DNA of 64,000 nt, taken from positions 37,388,001-37,452,000 of the forward strand of contig CM059432.1 in the NCBI GenBank assembly GCA_030390025.1, written 5' to 3'. Position 1 is the stretch's first letter. Every line of letters begins with the position of its first letter. Below, piece by piece: positions 8,764 to 59,984 of this stretch. This DNA is from Squalus acanthias. Taxonomy: Eukaryota. A program made the translations under genes and the position numbers. The notes beneath the pieces were generated by a model. That model searched no databases, was not told the DNA's origin, and saw only the letters and a list, made by a program, of their open reading frames with translations.

Positions 8764-9848
8764 TAGAAACATAGAAGATAGGAGCAGGAGTAGGCCATTC
8801 GGCCCCTCGAGCCTGCTCCGCCATTCGATGAGATCATGGCTGATCATCCAAACTCAGTACCCTGTCCCTGCCTTCTCCCCATATCCCTTGATACCTTTAG
8901 CTTTAAGAAATATATCTAACTCATTCTTGAATATATTTAATGACTTGGCCTCAACTACCTTCTGTGGTAGAGAATTCCACAGGTTCACCACTCTCTGAGT
9001 GAAGAAATTCTTCCTCATTTCTGTCCTGAATGGCTTACCCGTTATCCTTAGATTATGACCCCTGGTTCTGGACTCTCCGACATCGGGAACATTCTTCCTG
9101 CATCTAGTTTGTCCAGACCTGTCAGAATTTTATATGTTTTGATGAGATCCCCTCTCATTCTTCTATACTCCGGCGAGTATAAGCCCAATCGACCCAATCT
9201 CTCCTCATATGTCATTCCTGCCATCCCAGGTATCAGCCTTGTGAATCTTCACTGAACTCCTTCCATGGCAAGAACATCCTTCCTCAGATAAGGCGACCAA
9301 AACTGCACACAGTACTCAAGGTGTGGTCTCACCAAGGCCCTGTACAACTGCAGCAGGACATCCCTGTTCCTATACTCAAACCCTTTCGCTATGAAGGCCA
9401 ACATACCATTTGCCTTCTTCACCGCCTGCTGCACCTGCATGCTTACTTTCAGCGACTGGTGCACAAGGACACCCAGGTCTCGTTGCACTTCCCCTTCTCC
9501 CAATCTATTGCCATTCAGATAATAGTCTGCCTTTCTGTTTTTGACACCAAAGTGGATAACCTCGCATTTATCCACGTTATATTGCATCTGCCACGCTTCT
9601 GCCCACTCACCCAACCTGTCCAAATCATCCTGGAGTTTCTCGGTATCCTCCTCGCAGCACAAACTCCCACCCAGCTTTGTGTCATCTGCAAACTTGGAGA
9701 TATTACATTTAGTTCCCTTATCTAGATCATTAATGTATATTGTGAATAGCTGGGGTCCAAGGACCGATCCCTGCGGTACCCCACTAGTCACTGCTTGCCA
9801 CTCGGAAAAAGACCAATTAATTCCTACTCTCTGCTTTCTGTCCGCCAA
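8764..9848 (-). mobile_element. CR1 family B host copy, 3' part
   Basis: (CATAGAAA)n tail; RT motifs GVPQGSVLGP and FADD. Confidence 0.95.
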
Positions 9849-12796
9849 TAATTCATATAGGTCTGAGAGCGTTAAAAAAACAAGCCTGAAGGCTTTGTGT
9901 CTTAATGCAAGGAGCATTCGGAACAAGGTGGATGAATTAGCTGTGCAAATAGAGGTAAATGAATACGATTTGATTGGGATTACAGAAACATGGCTCCAGG
10001 GTGGCCAAGGCTGGGAACTCAACATCCAGGGTTATTCAATATTTAGGAAAGATAGGCAAAAAAGAAAGGGAGGTGGGGTAGCATTGCTGGTTAAAGAGGG
10101 GATTAACACGATTGAAAGGAAGGATATTAGCTCTGATGATGCGGAATCTGTATGGGTAGAACTGAGAAATAACATGGGGCAGAAAACATTAGTGGGAGTG
10201 GTATATAGACCTCCAAACAGTAATACGGAGGTTGGGGACGGCATTAAAAGGGAAATTAGAGAAGCATGCAGTAAGGGCACAGCAGTCATCATGGGTGACT
10301 TTAATTTACATATAGATTGGGCTAACCAAATTAGTAAAAATACTGTGAAGGAGGAATTCCTAGAATGTTTACGAGATGGTTTTCTGGAACAATATGTCGA
10401 GGAACCAACCAGAGATCAGGCCATCTTAGGCTGGGTATTATGTAACGAGAAAGGATTAATTAGCAATCTTGTTGTACGAGGCCCCTTGGGTCAGAGTGAT
10501 CATAATATGATAGAATTCTTCATTAGGATGGAGAGTGAAGTGGTTGAATCAGAGACTAGGGTCCTGAATTTAAATAAAGGAAACTACGATGGTATGAGGC
10601 GCAAATTGGGTAGGATTGATTGGGGAATGTCACTCAAGGGGTTGACGGTGGATAGGCAATGGCAAACATTCAAAGACTGCATGGATGAACTACAGAATTT
10701 GTTCATCCTAGTGTGGCATAAGAATAAAACAAAAAGGGTGACTCAACCGTGGCTAACAAGAGAAATTAGGGATAGCATAAGATCCAAGGAGAGGGCATAT
10801 AAATTGGCCAGAAAAAGCGGTAGCCCTGAGGATTGGGAGCAGTTTAGGATTCAACAAAGGAGGACAAAGGGATTAATTAAGAAGGGGAAAATAGAATATG
10901 AAAGTAAGCTTGCTGGGAACATAAAAACTGAGTGTAAGAGCTTTTATAGATATGTGAAGAGAAAAAGATTAGTGAAATCAAGTGTAGGTCCCTTGCAGTC
11001 AGAAGCGGGGGAAGTTATAATGGGGAACAAAGAAATGGCAGACCAATTAAATGCATATTTTGGTTCTGTCTTCACAAAGGAGGACACAAATAACCTCCCA
11101 GAGATGTTGGAGAACATAGGGTCTGATGAAAGGGAGGAACTGAAAGAAATCAGTATTTGCAGGGAAATGGTGTTAGGGAAATTGACGGGATTGAAGGCCG
11201 ATAAATCCCGAGGGCCTGATAATCTACATCCTAGGGTACTTAAGGAAGTGGCCCTAGAAATAGTAGTTGCATTGCTGATCATCTTCCAACATTTGATGGA
11301 ATCTGGAACAGTACCCATGGATTGGAGGGTAGCTAATGTTACCCCACTATTCAAAAAGGGTGGTAGAGAGAAAGCGGGGAATTACAGACTGGTAAGCCTG
11401 CCATCAGTATTGGGGAAAATGCTAGGGTCCATTATAAAGGATGTAATAGCTGAGCACTTGAAAAACAGTGACAGGATCGGACAAAGTCAACATGGATTTA
11501 CAAAAGGTAAATCGTGCTTGACTAATCTACTGGAATTTTTTGAGGATGTAACTGGGAAAATAGATAAGGGAGAACCAGTAGATGTGGTGTATTTGGACTT
11601 TCAAAAGGCTTTCGATAAGGTCCTGCATAAGAGATTAGCGTGTAAAGTTAAGGCACATGGGATTGGGGGCAAGGTATTGACTTGGATAGAGAACTGGTTG
11701 GCGGACAGAAAGCAGAGAGTAGGAATTAATGGGTCTTTTTCCGAGTGGCAAGCAGTGACTAGTGGGGTACCGCAGGGATCGGTCCTTGGACCCCAGCTAT
11801 TCACAATATACATTAATGATCTAGATAAGGGAACTAAATGTAATATCTCCAAGTTTGCAGATGACACAAAGCTGGGTGGGAGTGTGTGCTGCAAGGAGGA
11901 TACCGAGAAACTCCAGGATGATTTGGACAGGTTGGGTGAGTGGGCAGAAGCGTGGCAGATGCAATATAACGTGGATAAGTGCGAGGTTATCCACTTTGGT
12001 GTCAAAAACAGAAAGGCAGATTATTATCTGAATGGCAATAGATTGGGATAAGGGGAAGTGCAACGAGACCTGGGTGTCCTTGTGCACCAGTCGCTGAAAG
12101 TAAGCATGCAGGTGCAGCAGGCGGTGAAGAAGGCAAATGGTATGTTGGCCTTCATAGCGAAAGGGTTTGAGTATAGGAACAGGGATGTCCTGCTGCAGTT
12201 GTACAGGGCCTTGGTGAGACCACACCTTGAGTACTGTGTGCAGTTTTGGTCGCCTTATCTGAGGAAGGATGTTCTTGCCATGGAAGGAGTTCAGCGAAGA
12301 TTCACAAGGCTGATACCTGGGATGGCAGGAATGACATATGAGGAGAGATTGGGTCGATTGGGCTTATACTCGCTGGAGTATAGAAGAATGAGAGGGGATG
12401 TCATCGAAACATATAAAATTCTGACAGGTCTGGACAAACTAGATGCAGGAAGAATGTTCCCGATGGTCGGAGAGTCCAGAACCAGGGGTCATAATCTAAG
12501 GATAACGGGTAAGCCATTTAGGACAGAAATTAGGAAGAATTTCTTCACCCAGAGAGTGGTGAACCTGTGGAATTCTCTACCACAGAAGGTAGTTGAGGCT
12601 AAGTCATTAAATATATTCAAGAATGAGTTAGATATATTTCTTAAAGCTAAAGGTATCAAGGGATATGGGGAGAAGGCAGGGACAGGGTACTGAGTTTGGA
12701 TGATCAGCCATGATCTCATCGAATGGCGGAGCAGGCTCGAGGGGCCGAATGGCCTACTCCTGCTCCTATCTTCTATGTTTCTATGTTTCTATATGT
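9847..12796 (+). mobile_element. CR1 family B copy (nearly full ORF2: APE endonuclease and RT) inserted antisense into its sibling
   Basis: NARSIRNK, ITETW, GDFN, SDH endonuclease motifs; FADD; one nonsense codon at 12049-12051; (TTTCTATG)n tail. Confidence 0.95.
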
Positions 12797-15711
12797 AACC
12801 AGTTCTCTATCCAAGTCAATACCTTGCCCCCAATCCCATGTGCCTTAACTTTACATGCTAATCTCTTATGCGGGACCTTATCGAAAGCCTTTTGAAAGTC
12901 CAAATACACTACATCTACTGGTTCTCCCTGATCTATTTTCCCAGTTACATCCTCAAAAAATTCCAGTAGATCAGTCAAGCACGATTTACCTTTTGTAAAT
13001 CCATGTTGACTTTGTCCGATCCTGTCACTGTTTTTCAAGTGCTCAGCTATTACATCCTTTATAATGGACCCTAGCATTTTCCCCAATACTGATGGCAGGC
13101 TTACCAGTCTGTAATTCCCCGCTTTCTCTCTACCACCCTTTTTGAATAGTGGGGTAACATTAGCTACCCTCCAATCCATGGGTACACTTCCAGATTCCAT
13201 CGAATGTTGGAAGATGATCAGCAATGCATCTACTATTTCTAGGGCCACTTCCTTAAGTACCCTAGGATGTAGATTATCAGGCCCTGGGGATTTATCGGCC
13301 TTCAATCCCGTCAATTTCCCTAACACCATTTCCCTGCAAATACTGATTTCTTTCAGTTCCTCCCTTTCATCAGACCCTATGTTCTCCAACATCTCTGGGA
13401 GGTTATTTGTGTCCTCCTTTGTGAAGACAGAACCAAAATATGCATTTAATTGGTCTGCCATTTCTTTGTTCCCCATTATAACTTCCCCCGCTTCTGACTG
13501 CAAGGGACCTACACTTGATTTCACTAATCTTTTTCTCTTCACATATCTATAAAAGCTCTTACACTCAGTTTTTATGTTCCCAGCAAGCTTACTTTCATAT
13601 TCTATTTTCCCCTTCTTAATTAATCCCTTTGTCCTCCTTTGTTGAATCCTAAACTGCTCCCAATCCTCAGGGCTACCGCTTTTTCTGGCCAATTTATATG
13701 CCCTCTCCTTGAATCTTATGCTATCCCTAATTTCCCTTGTTAGCCACGGTTGAGTCACCCTTTTTGTTTTATTCTTATGACACACTGGGATGAACAAATT
13801 CTGTAGTTCATCCATGCAGTCTTTGAATGTTTGCCATTGCCTATCCACCGTCAACCCCTTGAGTGACATTCCCCAATCAATCCTACCCAATTCGCGCCTC
13901 ATACCATCGTAGTTTCCTTTATTTAAATTCAGGACCCTAGTCTCTGATTCAACTACTTCACTCTCCATCCTAATGAAAAATTCTATCATATTATGATCAC
14001 TCTGACCCAAGGGGCCTCGTACAACAAGATTGCTAATTAAGCCTTTCTCATTACATAATACCCAGTCTAAGATGGCCTGATCTCTGGTTGGTTCCTCGAC
14101 ATATTGTTCCAGAAAACCATCCCGTAAACATTCTAGGAATTCCTCCTCCACAGTATTTTTACTAATTTGGTTAGCCCAATCTATATTTAAATTAAAGTCA
14201 CCCATGATGACTGCTGTGCCCTTACTGCATGCTTCTCTAATTTCCCTTTTAATGCCGTCCCCAACCTCCGTATTACTGTTTGGAGGTCTATATACCACTC
14301 CCACTAACGTTTTCAGCCCTTGTTATTTCTCATTTCTACCCATACAGATTCCGCATCATCAGAGCTAATATCCTTCCTTTCAATTATGTTAATCCCCTCT
14401 TTAACCAGCAATGCTACCCCACCTCCCTTTCTTTTTTGCCTATCTTTCCTAAATATTGAATAACCCTGGATGTTGAGTTCCCAGCCTTGGCCACCCTGGA
14501 GCCATGTTTCTGTAATCCCAATTAAATCGTATTCATTTACCTCTATTTGCGCAGCTAATTCATCCACCTTGTTCCGAATGCTCCTTGCATTAAGACACAA
14601 AGCCTTCAGGCTTGTTTTTTTAACGCTCTCAGACCTATATGAATTATTATTTACTGTGACCATGTTTGATTTAGACCGTTGAGTTCTTTGCCTTCTACTT
14701 TTGTTTTTCTCCTTCCTGTCTAGCTTTTATCCTTGTTTCTCTTTCCTCTGTCTCCCTGATCAGGTTCCCAACCCCCTGCCACTTTAGTTTAAACCCTCCC
14801 CAACAGCACTAGCAAACACTCCCCCTAGGACATCGGTCCCTGCCCTGCCCAGGTGCAGACCGTCCTGTTTGTACTGGTCCCACCTCCCCCAGAACCGGTT
14901 CCAATGTCCAAGGAATTTGAATCCCCTCCCCTTGCACCATTCCTCTAGCCACGTATTCATTTGAAATATCCTCCTATTTCTACTCTGACTAGCACATGGC
15001 ACTGGTAGCAATCCTGAGATTACTACATTTGAGGTCCTATTTTTTAATTTACCTCCTAACTCCCTATATTCTGCTTTTAGGACCTCATCCCGTTTTTTAC
15101 CTATATCGTTGATGCCTATGTGCACCACGACAACTGGCTGTTCGCCCTCCCCCTCCAAAATGTTCTGTAGCCGCTCCGAGACGTCCTTGACCCTTGCACC
15201 AGGGAGGCAACACACCATCCTGGAGTCTCGTTTGCGGCCGCAGAAATGCCTATCTATTCCCCTTACAATTGAATCCCCTATCACTATAGCTCTTCCACAC
15301 TTTTTCCTCCCAGCCTGTGCAGCAGAGCCACCCATGGTGCCAGGAAGTTGGCTGCTGCCGCCTTCCCCTGATAAGTCATCCCCCCCAAAAGCATCCAAAG
15401 TGGTATATCTGTTTGAGAGGGGGATGGCCACAGGGGACCCCTGCACTACCTGCCTGCACCTCTTACTCTGCCTGGCGGTCACCCATTCACTTCCTGCCTG
15501 TATACCCTTTACCTGCGGTGTGACCAACTCACTAAACGTGTTATCCACGACGTTCTCAGCGTCGCGAATGCTCCAATATGCATCCATCCGCAGCTCCAGC
15601 GCCGCAATGCGGTCCGTCAGTAGCTGCAGCTGGATACATTTCCCACACACATGGTCGTCAGGGACACAGGAAGCATCCCTGATTTCCCACATATAGCAGG
15701 AGGAGCATATC
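12797..15711 (-). mobile_element. CR1 family B host copy, 5' part (ORF2 N-terminal half and ORF1)
   Basis: Resumes where 8764-9848 stops; ORF2 has a stop at 14313. Confidence 0.95.
14784..15711 (-). CDS. CR1 ORF1 (zinc finger/leucine zipper and SGNH esterase), 5'-truncated
   Basis: CxxC...CxxC, then GDS, GxND and DGLH blocks of an SGNH hydrolase. Confidence 0.9.
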
Positions 15712-16159
15712 ACAATGGTGTCACATTTGCCACTTTCCAATCCTCAGGCACCACCCCTGCATCTAGGGAAGATTGGAAAGTTATGGCAAGCCCTTCTGCT
15801 ATCTCCTCCCCGAATTCCCTTAGCAACCTGGGATGCAAGCCATCTGGACCAGGCGACTTATCCACTCCAAGCATACCCAGCCTTTCTCATATATCCTGTC
15901 TGTCAATTTTCACCCCTTCCATTGCTTTTGCCTTTTCCACTTCTACCGATATTTTGTCAGCATCCACCTCCTCAGTAAACATCGATACAAAGTACTCATT
16001 GAGTATTCTAGCCTTGCCCTGCGCCTCTAAGCATATATCACCTTCTTTGTCCCTAATAGGCCCCACCTCGTCTCTTACTACCAGCTTACTATTTACATGC
16101 CGGTAGAAGATTTTTGGGTTCCCTTTTACGTTAACCGCCATTCTACTCTCATATTCTCT
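15712..16159 (-). mobile_element. CR1 family A copy 1, 5' part
   Basis: Colinear with copy 2 from 18424; joins 8763 once the nested CR1-B is removed. Confidence 0.9.
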
Positions 16160-24603: not shown

Positions 24604-24839
24604 CCCTTTTACCAAATATGGTTTCAAGGTGAGGCTGGACGGGTCAAACCGTGACATCACAGAGCAAGCCTCACCCTCACACTGCGCATCACAATGAGAT
24701 GAGACATCACAATAGCTTTATACACTTGATAAAAATTTGATGCAAGAGGCGATACAATCAGTTTACATGAAGGAAAGGCAGCAGCATTGAGTGAACATCT
24801 GAACAGCTTTGCTTTGTGAAGAGAGCACGAACAATGAAA

Positions 24840-26484
24840 ACATCAGGGATAGTCAACACGGATTCGTGAAGGGTAAGTCTTGCCTAACAAATTTGATTGA
24901 ATTCTTTGAGGAGGTAACTAAGTGTGTAGATGAAGGTAGAGCAGTTGATGTCATATACATGGATTTTAGTAAGGCGTTTGATAAGGTTCCCCATGGTCGT
25001 CTCATGAAGAAAGTAAGGAGTTGTGGGATAGAGGGAAATTTGGCCGATTGGATAAGTAACTGGCTATCTCATAGAAGGCAGAGGGTGGTGGTGGATGGAA
25101 CATTTTCGGACTGGAAACCAGTTACCAGCGGTGTGCCACAGGGGTCGGTGCTGGGTCCTCTGCTGTTTGTGATTTTTATCAATGACTTGGAGGAGGGGAC
25201 TGAAGGGTGGATCAGTAAATTTGCTGATGACACCAAGATTGGTGGAGTAGTGGATGAGGTGGAGGGCAGTTGTAGGCTGCAAAGAGACATTGATAGGATG
25301 CAGAGCTGGGCCGAAAAATGGCAGATGGAATTTAACCCTGATAAGTGCGAGGTGATTCATTTTGGTAGGGCAAATTTGAATAAGGATTACAGGGTCAACG
25401 GCAGGGTTCTGAGGAACGTGGAGGAGCAGAGGGATCTGGGGGTTCATAATTTACATTAATGACCTGGATCAGGGAGTCGGATGCAGCATTTCCAAATTTG
25501 CAGACGACACTAAACTAGGAGGGGGGGTGGGCTCAGAGGAGGAGACCAGGAAGCTCCAGAGCGATTTGGACAGACTGGGTGATTGGGCGGATAAATGGCA
25601 GATGCACTATAATGTGGACAAGTGCGAAGTTATCCACCTTGGGTGCAGGAACGGGAGGGCAAATTATTATTTAAATGGCAATATATTGGGAGAGGGGGAA
25701 GTACAGAGAGACCTGGGTGTTCTTGTACACCAGTCACTGAAGGCGAGCATGCAGGTGCAACAGGCGGTCAAGAAGGCAAACGGTATGCTGGCCTTCATAG
25801 CAAAAGGGTTGGAATACAGGAACAGGGATACCTTGCTGCAGCTGTACAGGGCACTGGTAAGACCACACCTCGAGTACTGTGTACAGTTTTGGTCGCCTCA
25901 TCTGAGGAAACATGTTCTTGCCATGGAGGGGGTGCAGCGGCGATTCACCAGGCTGATACCAGGAATGGCGGGATTGACCTATGAGGAGAGACTATGTAGT
26001 TTAGGGATGTACACACTGGAGTTTAGAAGATTGAGAGGGGACCTCATAGAAGTGTATAAAATTCTGACAGGTCTAGACAGACTAGATGCAGAAGGAATGT
26101 TTCCCTTGGCGGGTGAGAACAGAACTAGAGGACATAATTTAAGGATAAGGGCTAAACCATTTAGGACAGAAATGAGGGGGAATTTCTTCACTCAGAGGGT
26201 GGTGAACCTGTGGAACTCATTGCCACAGAGGGCAGTGTACGCCAGCTCATTAAATATATTTAAGAGGGAATTAGATATATTTCTACAGGCAAAAGGGGTT
26301 AAGGGTTACGGAGAGAAGTCGGACACTTTAGGCACTTTCAAGCGGTTATTGGATAAGCACATGGAGCACACCAGAGTGATAGGGAGTGTGATAGCTTGAT
26401 CTTGGTCTCGGACAATGCTCGGCACAACATCGAGGGCCGAAGGGCCTGTACTGTGCTGTACTGTTCTATGTTCTATGTTCTATG
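24840..26484 (+). mobile_element. Chimeric CR1 3' portion (two subfamilies) with (TTCTATG)n tail
   Basis: The IND...FADDTK...RDLGV RT block occurs twice in different sequence versions (ORFs 24809 and 25527). Confidence 0.9.
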
Positions 26485-54510: not shown

Positions 54511-54710
54511 NNNNNNNNNNNNNNNNNNNNNNNNNNNNNNNNNNNNNNNNNNNNNNNNNNNNNNNNNNNNNNNNNNNNNNNNNNNNNNNNNNNNNNNNNN
54601 NNNNNNNNNNNNNNNNNNNNNNNNNNNNNNNNNNNNNNNNNNNNNNNNNNNNNNNNNNNNNNNNNNNNNNNNNNNNNNNNNNNNNNNNNNNNNNNNNNNN
54701 NNNNNNNNNN
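54511..54710. other. Assembly gap
   Basis: 200 N. Confidence 1.
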
Positions 54711-55743
54711 GGAGATCTCCTGGTCCCACTTGTTTACTGCTTCTGCTGCTCGGTCAGTCGGCTGGACCGTCCGCTGTAGTGAAGACCTCTGTTGGTTGGA
54801 TACAGGGTATGGTGGAGCACCGTTGTCAATATCGCTGATACGATGTGTTTGCACAGTCCAGTTATCGTCGATGCAATATGTCTTGTTAAAGAAGAAAACT
54901 TCCTGTCGAGAAGACTTGGCTGATCGACCTACAGGCGCGGTCGGGATTTACTGACCGTGGCGATGGATAAGGTCTTCTTCTCTTCTCCTCTCATCTCATC
55001 TCATCTCATCTCATCTCGGGCCTTTGGTTCCGCTGCCAGCTACCAACATAGGTCTTTGCAACAGTCTTTTACACAGGAGCAGCCACGAGGTTACGAATCG
55101 ACCGGATAAAACACAGGAGCAGCCACGATGATAACAGCAGCAAGCGGCAAGAGTCAAGAGCAAAAGAGCAAGAGCAAGAGAGCGAATGGACGGTTTGGGC
55201 CTGCAATTATAGTGCACAGTTCTTCCGTTTCCCGCCCAACTACAATGTCCATTCTTTTGTTTAAGGTTTGGCGCCCAAAAATGTCCTGTATGGGTGATCT
55301 CTGTCCTTAATGGGTTTCGGGGCTACTCCTGAATGTTTGAGTACCTGTTAATATTTCTCCCATTGTTAAATCGGTCGGTGTTCCCCCTGGAGGGGTTTGG
55401 GGCTTCCAAGTGTCCTGTCCTTTGGATGGGCCCTTGATGGCTTTCCTTTGTACCTGGGAGACCGATCCCAGTATCGATGTTTATACTGTAAACCCATAAT
55501 GTCCTGTGTATTGTCTTCACTGTGCTGAATCGTTATCGATCCTGCAAAAATATTTATTGGAACGCCATCTTGTCTGCCTGCCGAAAAGTCTCGAATGTTC
55601 TGTCACGCGGTGCGGCGGCCATTTTACAGGCTGCTTGTGTCCAATTTAAACCTGACAGCATTCCGCTGAAATAAAAGCTGTTTTGAACGAAACTTGTGTT
55701 TTCTCCTTATTAAAATGAAATCGCGATAATTGCGAATTCTACA
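54711..55743 (-). repeat. 3' LTR (truncated by the gap)
   Basis: Matches 62333-63395. Confidence 0.95.
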
Positions 55744-55755
55744 GTCCCTCCTGTT
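55744..55755 (-). promoter_or_regulatory. Polypurine tract
   Basis: AACAGGAGGGAC immediately before the TGTAG LTR start. Confidence 0.8.
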
Positions 55756-56167: not shown

Positions 56168-58519
56168 TTACACTGCGCTCTCATCGTGCACGCGCACGTA
56201 ACGTTCTCGCCACTCTCCCGTGTTCTCATGCTTGGTGAGGCGCTTGTCTCTTTTACAATGTATGAACAAAAGGTATACTACAATAAACACTTGACAGACG
56301 ACTAAAATGTGGGAGGCTATTCTGACCCATGAGGGCACTTCAATATTCGTGAACAGATTCCACCACGGTGGAACCACTATGTCCAAAATGTCTGTACCTA
56401 TCTCGACGGTTTTCTGTTCTAATGTATAGAAATGCTTTTGTGACACCGCGACGGCTTTTAGAAGTTTGGTTAAATGCTCGGGGAGAGGGGGAATGAGGTA
56501 CCCAAAATGTGCGACAAATCGCTGCAAGTCGGTAAAATTCTCTTTTACTGTGAGATGAACAGTGGATGGTTCAGGGATTGGGATAATTCGCTGTTGTGCT
56601 ACTTGAACTTCAGCCCTGGGTTTAAAACAGAAACTGCTGTCACTCACCGGACACCGGCTACGGTTTCCATGCTGGTAGTGTTGCGCTGCAGTGGTAACAC
56701 AATATGTTCCACCCCCGATGTATGCTACCTGCGGAGGCACATGATCTTGTGCCATTGCCTCCATGGTGCAATTCATGGACTTGGCGCCAGCCGTTCTGAA
56801 CCCGCACTGTGGTGTTAAAAAGGCATTCAAGTGCTGGGGGAACAGTATTATGTGTGCTCCCCTGCCACGACAACCAGAGAGATCTGTACCTGTCATCGTT
56901 TGCTCCCAGCGGATGACGTAAGGTGGAACCGCTGCATAACGAATGTGGGCTCCCCCCTGAATGACACCGATGTTCTCTACCCGATACACCGGGGCGGGCT
57001 TTGCTGTGTTGCCCAAAACCGGCATGCGTAATACTATTCCCATAATAGTATGGTTTGAACGTCCGCAGTCCACGGGGACTGGGTAAGCTTCTGAAGCTAG
57101 CCTGAGCTGGCACGGACTTAATGCATTCTGAAAAGGGTGGAGCGCCCGCAGGTGTTTGTTACTTATCCAGGACGGGACCAAACCTTGTTTTAAATCCTCC
57201 AAATTACTGCGGCCCTCGCCCAGTAACCACGCCCCGTAAAGCACGCACACCTCGTTCTGCGCAGCTTGATCGGATGCATTCCGATCTTCCCTAATCAGGG
57301 CATTTACCGTACGCGCATGTTTCTCCAGCTCTGCTATAATCTCTTTTAAGTGTAGTGTCATGGCTTGGTCCTCGTGCAGACCCGACCCTACCACTTTATT
57401 CTCATCTGTAAGAATATCCTTTAACTGTGTTTTTAAACCATTAATCTGGGTCTGCAGCTCCACACTGTCTAGAGCGTTGACCACAGATGTCCCTGTGTTA
57501 AAAGCAGTGAACGCATCGTTCACCAAACCCCTTCTTTGCCTCCCTACTTGGTCCAAAACTTCCTGCGGTGCGGTGTATAAACTTGTCTTATCAATTTCTG
57601 CAAAATCAAACTCGTAAAATTGCCTGAACATCTTGGTCAACAGGATCTGGTACAACTGTTCCGTCTTTTTGGGGCACCACTCTGGTAACCGTACCTCAGT
57701 GAGATTTAAAATCACCGAGGCCACCGCGTAATGTACCCCCTGAAATAGTATCTGGTCTGTGGGGACCAGTACCAAACCGTTCCCGGGTCCCTTACTAGTT
57801 TTAGGGCACCCTTCTTCCTTAGTTAGAACTACCGGAATCGTGGGCGGGGCTTTGCGTGGGCGCGTAATGAGCTCAGTGGCATTTACTGGGATCGGAGAGT
57901 ATGGGGCTCCGCACCCCCGGGTGCTCGCATCCCACCTCATCCCCTGTCCGTTATCCTGCCACTGGTTAATAAAGAATATGGAGATGCCTTTGGGGCAAAC
58001 GTACTTTGACCCCCACATACAAACATAAATCCCCTCATCTGGTTCCCACCATTTGTCCCAACAGACTTTCACTTGTCCATCTGTCCCCGTAATTGTCCGA
58101 TGGGTATTATTACCCAGTCGTTCCCACTCGACCGAAGAGTTCCTCATAGTTTTGCTCAGCTTTCGCAGCCACCACCATCGGCTCAATGGGACATTCCCAC
58201 TGCAGGTCAAACAAATCCGTTTGCCGACGGTGACGCTGATCCTGGGTGCGATGATCCGTACTTTGGGGCACATTAAAGAAGTCTCTTTGTAGGCGAACCC
58301 CGATGTGCTGGAATACTCCGTTGAGTTCGTTCCCAGCCATCCTGGCCACCTTCCCTTGTGGAAATAGGTGCTGGTCCCTTCTGCCTTCCGTCTTCCGGTC
58401 CCATCCACCGCGATGGGGGCCGTGTCCCCGGAACATCCAAACACCACGACATCCTTGGTGAGGCCCCGATAGGCCAATCCACATCCGATTGCCACGAGCA
58501 AAACTAGAAGTCGTTCCAT
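56168..58519 (-). CDS. env: Envelope glycoprotein, 783 aa from MERLL (frame open to 58702)
   Basis: Signal peptide, Ig-like C...W...DEGIYVC, RQRR furin site at 57530-57541, hydrophobic fusion peptide, heptad repeats, Cys-rich region, TM and short tail. Confidence 0.88.
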   Translation of the reverse strand: MERLLVLLVAIGCGLAYRGLTKDVVVFGCSGDTAPIAVDGTGRRKAEGTSTYFHKGRWPGWLGTNSTEYSSTSGFAYKETSLMCPKVRIIAPRISVTVGKRICLTCSGNVPLSRWWWLRKLSKTMRNSSVEWERLGNNTHRTITGTDGQVKVCWDKWWEPDEGIYVCMWGSKYVCPKGISIFFINQWQDNGQGMRWDASTRGCGAPYSPIPVNATELITRPRKAPPTIPVVLTKEEGCPKTSKGPGNGLVLVPTDQILFQGVHYAVASVILNLTEVRLPEWCPKKTEQLYQILLTKMFRQFYEFDFAEIDKTSLYTAPQEVLDQVGRQRRGLVNDAFTAFNTGTSVVNALDSVELQTQINGLKTQLKDILTDENKVVGSGLHEDQAMTLHLKEIIAELEKHARTVNALIREDRNASDQAAQNEVCVLYGAWLLGEGRSNLEDLKQGLVPSWISNKHLRALHPFQNALSPCQLRLASEAYPVPVDCGRSNHTIMGIVLRMPVLGNTAKPAPVYRVENIGVIQGGAHIRYAAVPPYVIRWEQTMTGTDLSGCRGRGAHIILFPQHLNAFLTPQCGFRTAGAKSMNCTMEAMAQDHVPPQVAYIGGGTYCVTTAAQHYQHGNRSRCPVSDSSFCFKPRAEVQVAQQRIIPIPEPSTVHLTVKENFTDLQRFVAHFGYLIPPLPEHLTKLLKAVAVSQKHFYTLEQKTVEIGTDILDIVVPPWWNLFTNIEVPSWVRIASHILVVCQVFIVVYLLFIHCKRDKRLTKHENTGEWRERYVRVHDESAV

Positions 58520-58802
58520 CCTTCCTTGGTTCCTGCGATCAGATAAAATGCTGTAGCCAGCCTCCCAAGAGTCTCTGGCTTTTGTGAAGGGTGAGCGGGT
58601 CCCCTGACCTCGCCTCACGTAAACTTCAACGTTTGCTAAATAGACTTCCTCTAAACCTAGCCTTAAAACTCCCATCATTTTATCGTTATCTGTTAAAAAC
58701 ACTACAAACTTAACCTTATTAAAACTACTTAAAACTTTAAACTAAAACTTAAAACCTTAAACTAATAACTTTACAATGCCGCCCGTTCTCAGGGCGGCCC
58801 CT

Positions 58803-59984
58803 TTAAATCCTGAGAAGGCTGCTGCGAGCTCTTCCCGACGGTGGGAGGGCACTGACCCTTCCCTCTGATCTGCCGCAGCCTGTTGCTGCGCTGACCCTTT
58901 CCTCTGATCTGCCGCAGCCTGTTACTGCTTCGATGTGGCCTGTCTCTACCCGGGTTATCTTAACCTGAAACTTACGCCCTGGGGCAGCCTGGGGACCTGA
59001 CCACATCTTCCTGGGCTGGGGTACTCTGCTTGACCTACGGGGAATTGCTATGGGCGGGGGCTCCGTGACGGACGGACCGGGTCCCGAGACCTTCAACGGG
59101 ATGACCTGGGGTTCCATCACAGGCGCCAGCTCCGCCTCCGCTGACTCCGCCTCCCTAACCTCGGGGCTGGCAGTTCGTGGCCCCGCCCTGCTCGGCCCAG
59201 CAAACGGCCCTTCACCCGTGATCTCTGCCTCCCCTGAGGACTGGACGTTCAAAGCGGGCGGCCACCCCTCTGGGAACCACATTGGTACTCCCTGTGCTCC
59301 TATAGCGGCTGACCCTGCCTCCTCTAGCTCCTCCCTCCTGTTGTCGGGACCTGCAGCTTGTGTGTCCACCCCGTGTGGATCTCTACCTATCGGCCCCAAT
59401 CCTCCCAGACCGTTCCTCAGGAACCACCCGTCATCATCACTATGCTCATCTGCACTATCCTCATCTGACCAGGGTACCCTGGGGTCCTCGTCATCTAACC
59501 CCCAACTCCAGAAAAACGCTGCATGATCGTCCGGGATGTCCCTTCCTCTGATGCAAGCTGCTATGCCTGCCTGTGTGCCTTGTGGTCCTACCTGGGGCTG
59601 TGCTTTCCCATTCGCAGGTCTGGCCCCTCCCTTAAGACAGGCCACCGCCCCTGCTTGTTTCTGTGAAATCTCACCTGCTGGAGGCTGCAGATTTCTATCC
59701 TGTTTTAAATCCTCATACTCCCTGCTCCTGGCTACCCTGTAGGCTGTTTTTATCTCTCTAAGCTGCCCTTCTAGCCTGAGCACGTCTAACTTTCCCATTT
59801 CTCGGGCATTCTCCTCCCGCAGGGTCTGCTCTCTAAGCTGCCCTTCCAGCCCATCTAATTTCCCTACTAAGCGGGCGTTCTCCTCCCGCAAGGCCTGCTC
59901 TTTTAACCTGGCCTCCTCACCGCAGACCCCCTCCTGTGCGTGTCTTTTAAAAGGACACAGGTAGGCAGGCTGCGTGGGCTCTAG
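58803..59984 (-). CDS. ORFX: in-frame extension past the gag stop (coiled coil, acidic patch, Pro/Gly-rich tail), function unknown
   Basis: Open for 393 codons from the codon after the gag TGA; no ATG near its start. Confidence 0.7.
   Translation of the reverse strand, partial: LEPTQPAYLCPFKRHAQEGVCGEEARLKEQALREENARLVGKLDGLEGQLREQTLREENAREMGKLDVLRLEGQLREIKTAYRVARSREYEDLKQDRNLQPPAGEISQKQAGAVACLKGGARPANGKAQPQVGPQGTQAGIAACIRGRDIPDDHAAFFWSWGLDDEDPRVPWSDEDSADEHSDDDGWFLRNGLGGLGPIGRDPHGVDTQAAGPDNRREELEEAGSAAIGAQGVPMWFPEGWPPALNVQSSGEAEITGEGPFAGPSRAGPRTASPEVREAESAEAELAPVMEPQVIPLKVSGPGPSVTEPPPIAIPRRSSRVPQPRKMWSGPQAAPGRKFQVKITRVETGHIEAVTGCGRSEERVSAATGCGRSEGRVSALPPSGRARSSLLRI

Follow-up and report, generated by a model that had tools for sequence, protein, structure and literature searches.

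The 64-kb stretch of Squalus acanthias DNA analysed here (CM059432.1; hereafter the window) contains, on its minus strand, an endogenous retrovirus (ERV) whose intact envelope gene, env, is the main subject of this study. The 783-aa product, Env, on which all residue numbers are based, is predicted to be a class Ib (F-type) fusogen carrying an N-terminal front module that includes a probable immunoglobulin (Ig)-like domain. The features of the element are listed in Table 1. A genome-wide search with env (3.7-Gb genome) gave 12,896 candidates, the best 57 of which were scored, a slice biased toward intact copies, and 19 of these were retrieved with their flanks for comparison of pol and the long terminal repeats (LTRs). 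When set against 19 further top copies one by one, the window Env shows two residue differences in every case and, judged from these sequences, env belongs to a recently multiplying, many-copy endogenous retrovirus.

Table 1. Features of the element in the window (positions of the 64-kb stretch; residues of the 783-aa Env).
Feature	Positions	Strand	Basis and remarks
5' LTR, 1595 bp, TG...CA	61801..63395	-	candidate splice donor at 62260/62259
Primer-binding site (PBS), complementary to 3' end of host tRNA-Arg(TCG)	61778..61795	-	starts 5 nt past LTR; overlaps first gag ATG
gag, 603 aa	59985..61796	-	coiled coil and one CCHC knuckle; TGA end, in frame with next open reading frame
393-codon remnant in pol frame	58803..59984	-	protease (PR), reverse transcriptase (RT), RNase H and integrase (IN) replaced by unrelated coiled-coil segment; pol 3' tail left
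Candidate env splice acceptor	58532..58540	-	intron ends AG at 58533; 13 nt before ATG
env, 783 aa, intact	56168..58519	-	open frame without internal stops; 57/57 scored genomic matches full-length and stop-free
Signal peptide, residues ~1-16	58472..58519	-	sequence and hydropathy; cleavage point inferred
Conserved pre-Ig segment, residues 17-85	58265..58471	-	49-56% identity in 15 sibling-family copies; low model confidence (pLDDT) in both models
Probable Ig-like (V/I-set-type) domain, residues ~86-175	57995..58264	-	C106...W115-117...D161xGxYxC167 plus extra Cys pairs
Post-Ig segment and Pro/Thr-rich linker, residues 176-237	57809..57994	-	most variable part of ectodomain, 45-58% identity
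F2-like N-terminal fusogen part, residues 238-330, RQRR (327-330) at end	57530..57808	-	F/foamy Env alignment; recurring start motif
F1-like subunit, residues 331-783	56171..57529	-	fusion peptide, long helix, Cys-rich beta domains, second helix, transmembrane segment (TM), 26-aa tail
Polypurine tract	55744..55755	-	
3' LTR	54711..55743	-	truncated by assembly gap (N 54511-54710)

The fusogen core

Env has the feature set of class Ib envelopes, namely a signal peptide, a furin site, a fusion peptide (only mildly hydrophobic), two heptad helices and a TM (about residues 730-757, ~56332-56249). In the predicted model, the structural match to F proteins and foamy virus Env extends from residues 238/245 to 650/716; the alignments begin at residues 238-245, in the F2-like segment upstream of the furin site, and the three-domain F fold is drawn from both cleavage products. 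The walleye retrovirus Envs also match this fold structurally, and the motif opening the core recurs in distant homologues and in snakehead retrovirus (SnRV). The match exceeds chance, and residues 238-760 are predicted to adopt the F2/F1 fold.

A gamma-type Env was rejected: the post-cleavage chain is 453 aa long and contains no CX6CC motif, no immunosuppressive domain (ISD) was found in Env by inspection, and no retroviral coat family was matched in Pfam at E<=1. The original prediction of a post-cleavage subunit of about 450 aa without obvious CX6CC or ISD, with an F-type rather than gamma-type layout, agrees with these results, and the assignment to class Ib is supported by the structural model. 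It had also let a Pro/Thr linker lead straight into RQRR; such a linker exists but is short (about residues 205-237), and the 93-aa F2-like segment (238-330) precedes the cleavage site.

The Ig-like front module

The Cys/Trp/DxGxYxC pattern described earlier after the signal peptide was confirmed, running from I94 (58240) through C103, C106 and W115-117 to D161-x-G-x-Y-x-C167 (C167 at 58021). The C106-to-C167 spacing of 61 residues lies within the 55-75 canonical for V/I-set domains, and D161 is replaced by E in most sibling families. Pfam Ig_3 matched 19 of 25 family members, with a best E of 9e-4, and the window's own module scored 13.9 bits against a curated cut-off of 30. No Ig match of the module passed a curated profile cut-off or a structural E<=0.001, and AlphaFold confidence is low for the front in both models. 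The closest structural neighbours of the module include V-set immune domains (antibody V, IgNAR, CD8 and CD79b), in a ranking that lies within noise in a PDB dominated by antibodies, while the top sequence-level PDB match is JAM, a host adhesion molecule, at just E 0.98. These signals are weak yet concordant across methods; the resemblance to Ig is probably beyond chance, and residues ~86-175 form a probable Ig beta-sandwich.

Because some 70 conserved residues precede the Ig part and some 30 follow it, the front module amounts to about 220 aa and is more than the bare Ig domain first envisaged at the N terminus. On the comparison of family copies, purifying selection acts on this module (pN 0.21-0.23 versus pS 0.70-0.77 in the Ig-like domain). 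Capture of the domain had also been proposed; the Ig fold is probable, but a profile search of 5.8 billion clustered proteins returned 8 proteins, none of them a recognisable host Ig protein, and direct host capture is thus not borne out. No gamma-type receptor-binding domain (RBD) structure occurs among the top 50 structural matches listed for the module, an absence that carries little weight.

Homologues and replacement of the front

The nearest named homologues are from a skate and a sawshark. An Ig-like motif stands in front of the core in a bamboo shark protein (UniRef "Ig-like domain-containing"), in two frog proteins (called by eye) and in one further distant homologue with a Pfam V-set match of E 0.045, while two shark homologues have an unrelated Cys-rich domain before the core and two others a signal peptide only. 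Comparison detected no homology among the fronts of the distant homologues. On a quick core tree of 11 rows with long branches, the pair with the Cys-rich domain is sister to the window Env and nests within the Ig-bearing group, for which reason the unrelated front of this sister lineage suggests module replacement.

Two further forms of the gene were observed. Older sibling copies (L059, L061, L065 and L067) have an env that skips from residues ~331-345 to ~674; they keep the membrane anchor together with F2 and the Ig-like front but are without most of F1. A comparable gap lies inside a skate protein (P0003). Such a form, shared, anchored and non-fusing, could block receptors or act as a decoy. 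Three gene models (P0004, P0005 and P0038) join Env-family pieces to host-like domains (Niban-like, zinc fingers and, by eye, F-box-like), and may be annotation chimeras or exonised env.

Placement by the polymerase

The Pol of a sibling copy comprises PR, RT (YVDD), tether, RNase H and IN. The nearest RT relatives are one 90% match followed by frog, coelacanth and other Pols at 43-52% identity, and several of the closest Pol homologues are named NYNRIN-like by NCBI. A quick RT tree of 23 rows (22 of 35 Pol matches plus the Pol of a sibling copy) places the element in a 9-row clade with SH-aLRT support of 94, apart from the pair resembling lokiretroviruses (Loki). In this tree SnRV (P0089) and the only two Loki-like references (P0085 and P0100) were assigned by eye against the alignment in the PMC7947760 supplement. 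A clade of the element with the two Loki-like references was rejected (approximately unbiased test, p-AU 0.017, the constrained group having been named only after inspection of the first tree), as was an exclusive clade with SnRV (p=0.019), while a broad SnRV/ERV-L (Huo-like) clade was not rejected (p=0.097) yet is absent from the free tree. In phmmer searches the RT scored similarly against the murine leukaemia virus (MLV) type (239 bits) and foamy viruses (217 bits). As references are few and the tree contains no foamy RT, we place the element cautiously: the safe statement is that it is a retrovirus outside Loki, and from its sequence it is probably class III-like.

Comparison with known systems

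The likeness to lokiretroviruses noted in the original prediction holds for the Env core and not for the virus. An F-like Env with a furin site is shared, but such Envs also occur outside Loki; the tether and second RNase H in the sibling-copy Pol are shared as well, but are common to all retroviruses. The Env cores start with a similar GP-x-G motif, as judged by eye. The RT is 34-36% identical to Loki-like RTs and groups differently, and of the 12 Loki Env entries examined (of 23), 11 pass from the signal peptide directly to the core without a front module, the twelfth being truncated. In the Loki genome table, an asterisk marks the Loki-bearing coelacanth but none of the four genomes from three sharks and a chimaera (Wang and Han 2020, PMC7947760), and the abstract of that paper names no cartilaginous fish.

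SnRV shares more of the layout. Its Env core is homologous to that of the family, with the alignment starting at the opening motif (hhalign probability 76%, E 2e-5), it likewise has gag-stop-pol in one frame and a Gag with a coiled coil and one CCHC knuckle, and its PBS begins with the same six bases as that of the element. The SnRV primer is tRNA-Arg. SnRV Env (L071 6131-9535) also has an F-type core behind a long front, the first domain of which gives a faint V-set match (E 0.16), but this front measures about 500 aa against about 220 aa in the shark element, and comparison of the two detected no homology. The RT is just 37.5% identical to that of SnRV, the virus grouped with class III and clade Huo ERVs (PMC6001957, PMC12193657).

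Foamy viruses have a long LTR and a 4-bp target duplication, which the element resembles, and are unlike it in its CCHC Gag and read-through pol. Their class Ib Env shows the same core fold carrying a distinct receptor-binding module, although there the RBD is a novel fold of about 330 aa inside the N-subunit and in the shark element the module is N-terminal and Ig-like (PMC11468914). IgV-like N-terminal RBDs, used or proposed and exchangeable, are described for gamma-type envelopes (RBD-C) and for an alpha-like Env (a SIRP-derived IgV RBD), in each case on class Ia Envs, whereas the shark module sits on an F-type core without CX6CC or a recognisable host donor (Hotzel, bioRxiv 2024.03.17.585361). 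The F2/F1 fold, furin site and fusion peptide are shared with paramyxo/pneumovirus F, baculovirus F and errantivirus F-type Env (bioRxiv 2023.10.26.564294), at just 10-14% identity to the shark Env.

Proposed function and alternatives

Paramyxovirus F has no front module and works beside a separate attachment protein. The shark element is without a separate attachment gene, which makes receptor binding the likeliest job of its module, and we somewhat favour the reading of Env as a class Ib fusogen with a probable Ig-fold front module likely serving as a built-in attachment domain. Env would be made from a spliced mRNA and furin would cut after RQRR; since this is the only R-x-K/R-R site in the ectodomain, the module would stay attached to F2. 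It would be exposed on the outer side of the trimer. Binding of a host surface protein could then loosen the prefusion trimer and free the fusion peptide, a receptor-triggered refolding modelled on proposals for the receptor-binding modules of foamy Env and coronavirus spike. The pol-less window copy would spread by complementation from siblings that bear pol.

The module might instead have a structural role, as a cap or folding aid by which the prefusion trimer is stabilised or shielded, with attachment left to the core or to glycans. Extra Cys pairs, three N-glycan sites and an Ig part only moderately more variable than F2 would suit such a part, and the Loki Envs and two homologues do without the module, but its replacement by an unrelated module in the closest sister Env lineage is easier to reconcile with a specificity domain open to exchange than with a clamp that co-evolved, and we regard a cap as rather unlikely. 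That the region is not Ig at all, being a Trp/Cys-rich viral beta domain with motifs alike by convergence or chance, would explain the low AlphaFold confidence and the want of any match past the curated or structural thresholds; the canonical spacing, the agreement of independent methods and the two distant homologues that are Ig-like at the equivalent place (one by its UniRef name, one by Pfam V-set) speak against it, and we hold it to be improbable. The least probable of these is an immune decoy or modulator that would engage immune receptors of the host and take no part in entry. The V-set immune domains among the structural neighbours point that way, as does the reported binding of CD4 and MHC-II by the Env, different in type, of a zebrafish ERV (PMC10072453), yet the neighbour ranking is within noise, no close host counterpart was found in the profile search, and a module without a furin site of its own to free it stays on Env, which makes this role less likely.

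Whichever its role, the odds are about even that the module came from the envelope of another virus (an IgV-like gamma-type RBD would be one instance) or is a viral domain of long standing, as opposed to having been captured directly from a host Ig gene. The missing host donor agrees with a viral source, as do the Ig-like fronts spanning shark and frog elements and the described transfer of RBDs between retroviral Envs, including IgV-like RBDs on gamma-type envelopes (bioRxiv 2024.03.17.585361), although no gamma-type RBD was listed among the structural matches and the best PDB sequence match, for all its poor E-value, is the host protein JAM. More tentatively still, and with the balance against it, we may be dealing with a separate, still-invading lineage, distinct from Loki and from SnRV proper, whose hosts are sharks, rays, frogs and coelacanth and in which an F-type chassis takes swappable N-terminal attachment modules (Ig-type in several members, of another fold in one sister lineage, none in others); since SnRV, walleye retroviruses, foamy viruses and Loki also have F-like Envs, class Ib would then be the ancestral retroviral envelope and Ig receptor binding would have arisen independently of gamma-type RBD-C.

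F-type retroviral envelopes are already known from foamy viruses and lokiretroviruses, and IgV-like RBDs are known as well; what appears to be new is that the two are combined, together with the module series and the lineage. The literature searched, which covered few subscription papers, yielded no account of an F-type retroviral Env that carries an Ig-like domain, or of SnRV Env as F-type. Foamy viruses have no known receptor, and F has been seen, in a proposal made with foamy Env, as a scaffold accepting binding modules N-terminally or internally (PMC11468914). The Ig-like module, small and separable and carried by an intact Env of recent copying, offers a tractable handle on the cell specificity of F-type envelopes, and the homologue series with Ig-like, other and no fronts is a natural experiment for the scaffold proposal. 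The F-type core in SnRV and the structural match to walleye retrovirus Envs broaden class Ib across fish retroviruses, and this wider range bears on the nature of the first retroviral envelope.

The element, its copies and surroundings

pol is present in 12 of the 19 retrieved copies (uninterrupted in 11, split in one), while the other seven share the pol-less layout of the window. This pol-less subfamily (the window and the seven) has a segment of about 340 bp at 59953-59612 (-) whose reading frame, coding for a repeated coiled coil, runs on without a stop into the pol tail; this segment matched neither gag of the element nor any later-retrieved locus. The LTR pairs of the seven copies are 99.9-100% identical over comparable parts, from which very recent insertion can be concluded, and a 4-bp target duplication flanks the single copy that was recovered in full. 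The LTRs of the window copy are 99.4% identical over 328 bp but 92.8% over 709 bp, so that recombination, or a mosaic introduced by the assembly, may lie behind this copy.

The gag frame is open further upstream into the 5' LTR. The candidate env splice (62260 to 58532, with a GT...AG intron) was seen in one contig from one of eight runs; it is a hint only, because the shorter flank of the joint spans 23 nt and the RNA status of the run is presumed. Its donor lies within the LTR, upstream of the PBS, as in foamy viruses.

The element is inserted in a tandem tRNA gene array. Such arrays, with about 25 copies of a 1253-bp unit that has three tRNA-like genes, occupy ~19000-54500 and 63400-64000 of the window as well as L040 1-2360. 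Within the adjoining 10 kb lie a tRNA unit in duplicate, a related LTR in inverted orientation and a further copy of the retrovirus that has both env and pol sequence. Fragments of non-LTR retrotransposons (endonuclease-RT), one with an esterase-like (GDSL) ORF1, lie at 9526-12693 (+), 12781-15743 (-) and 24803-26399 (+).
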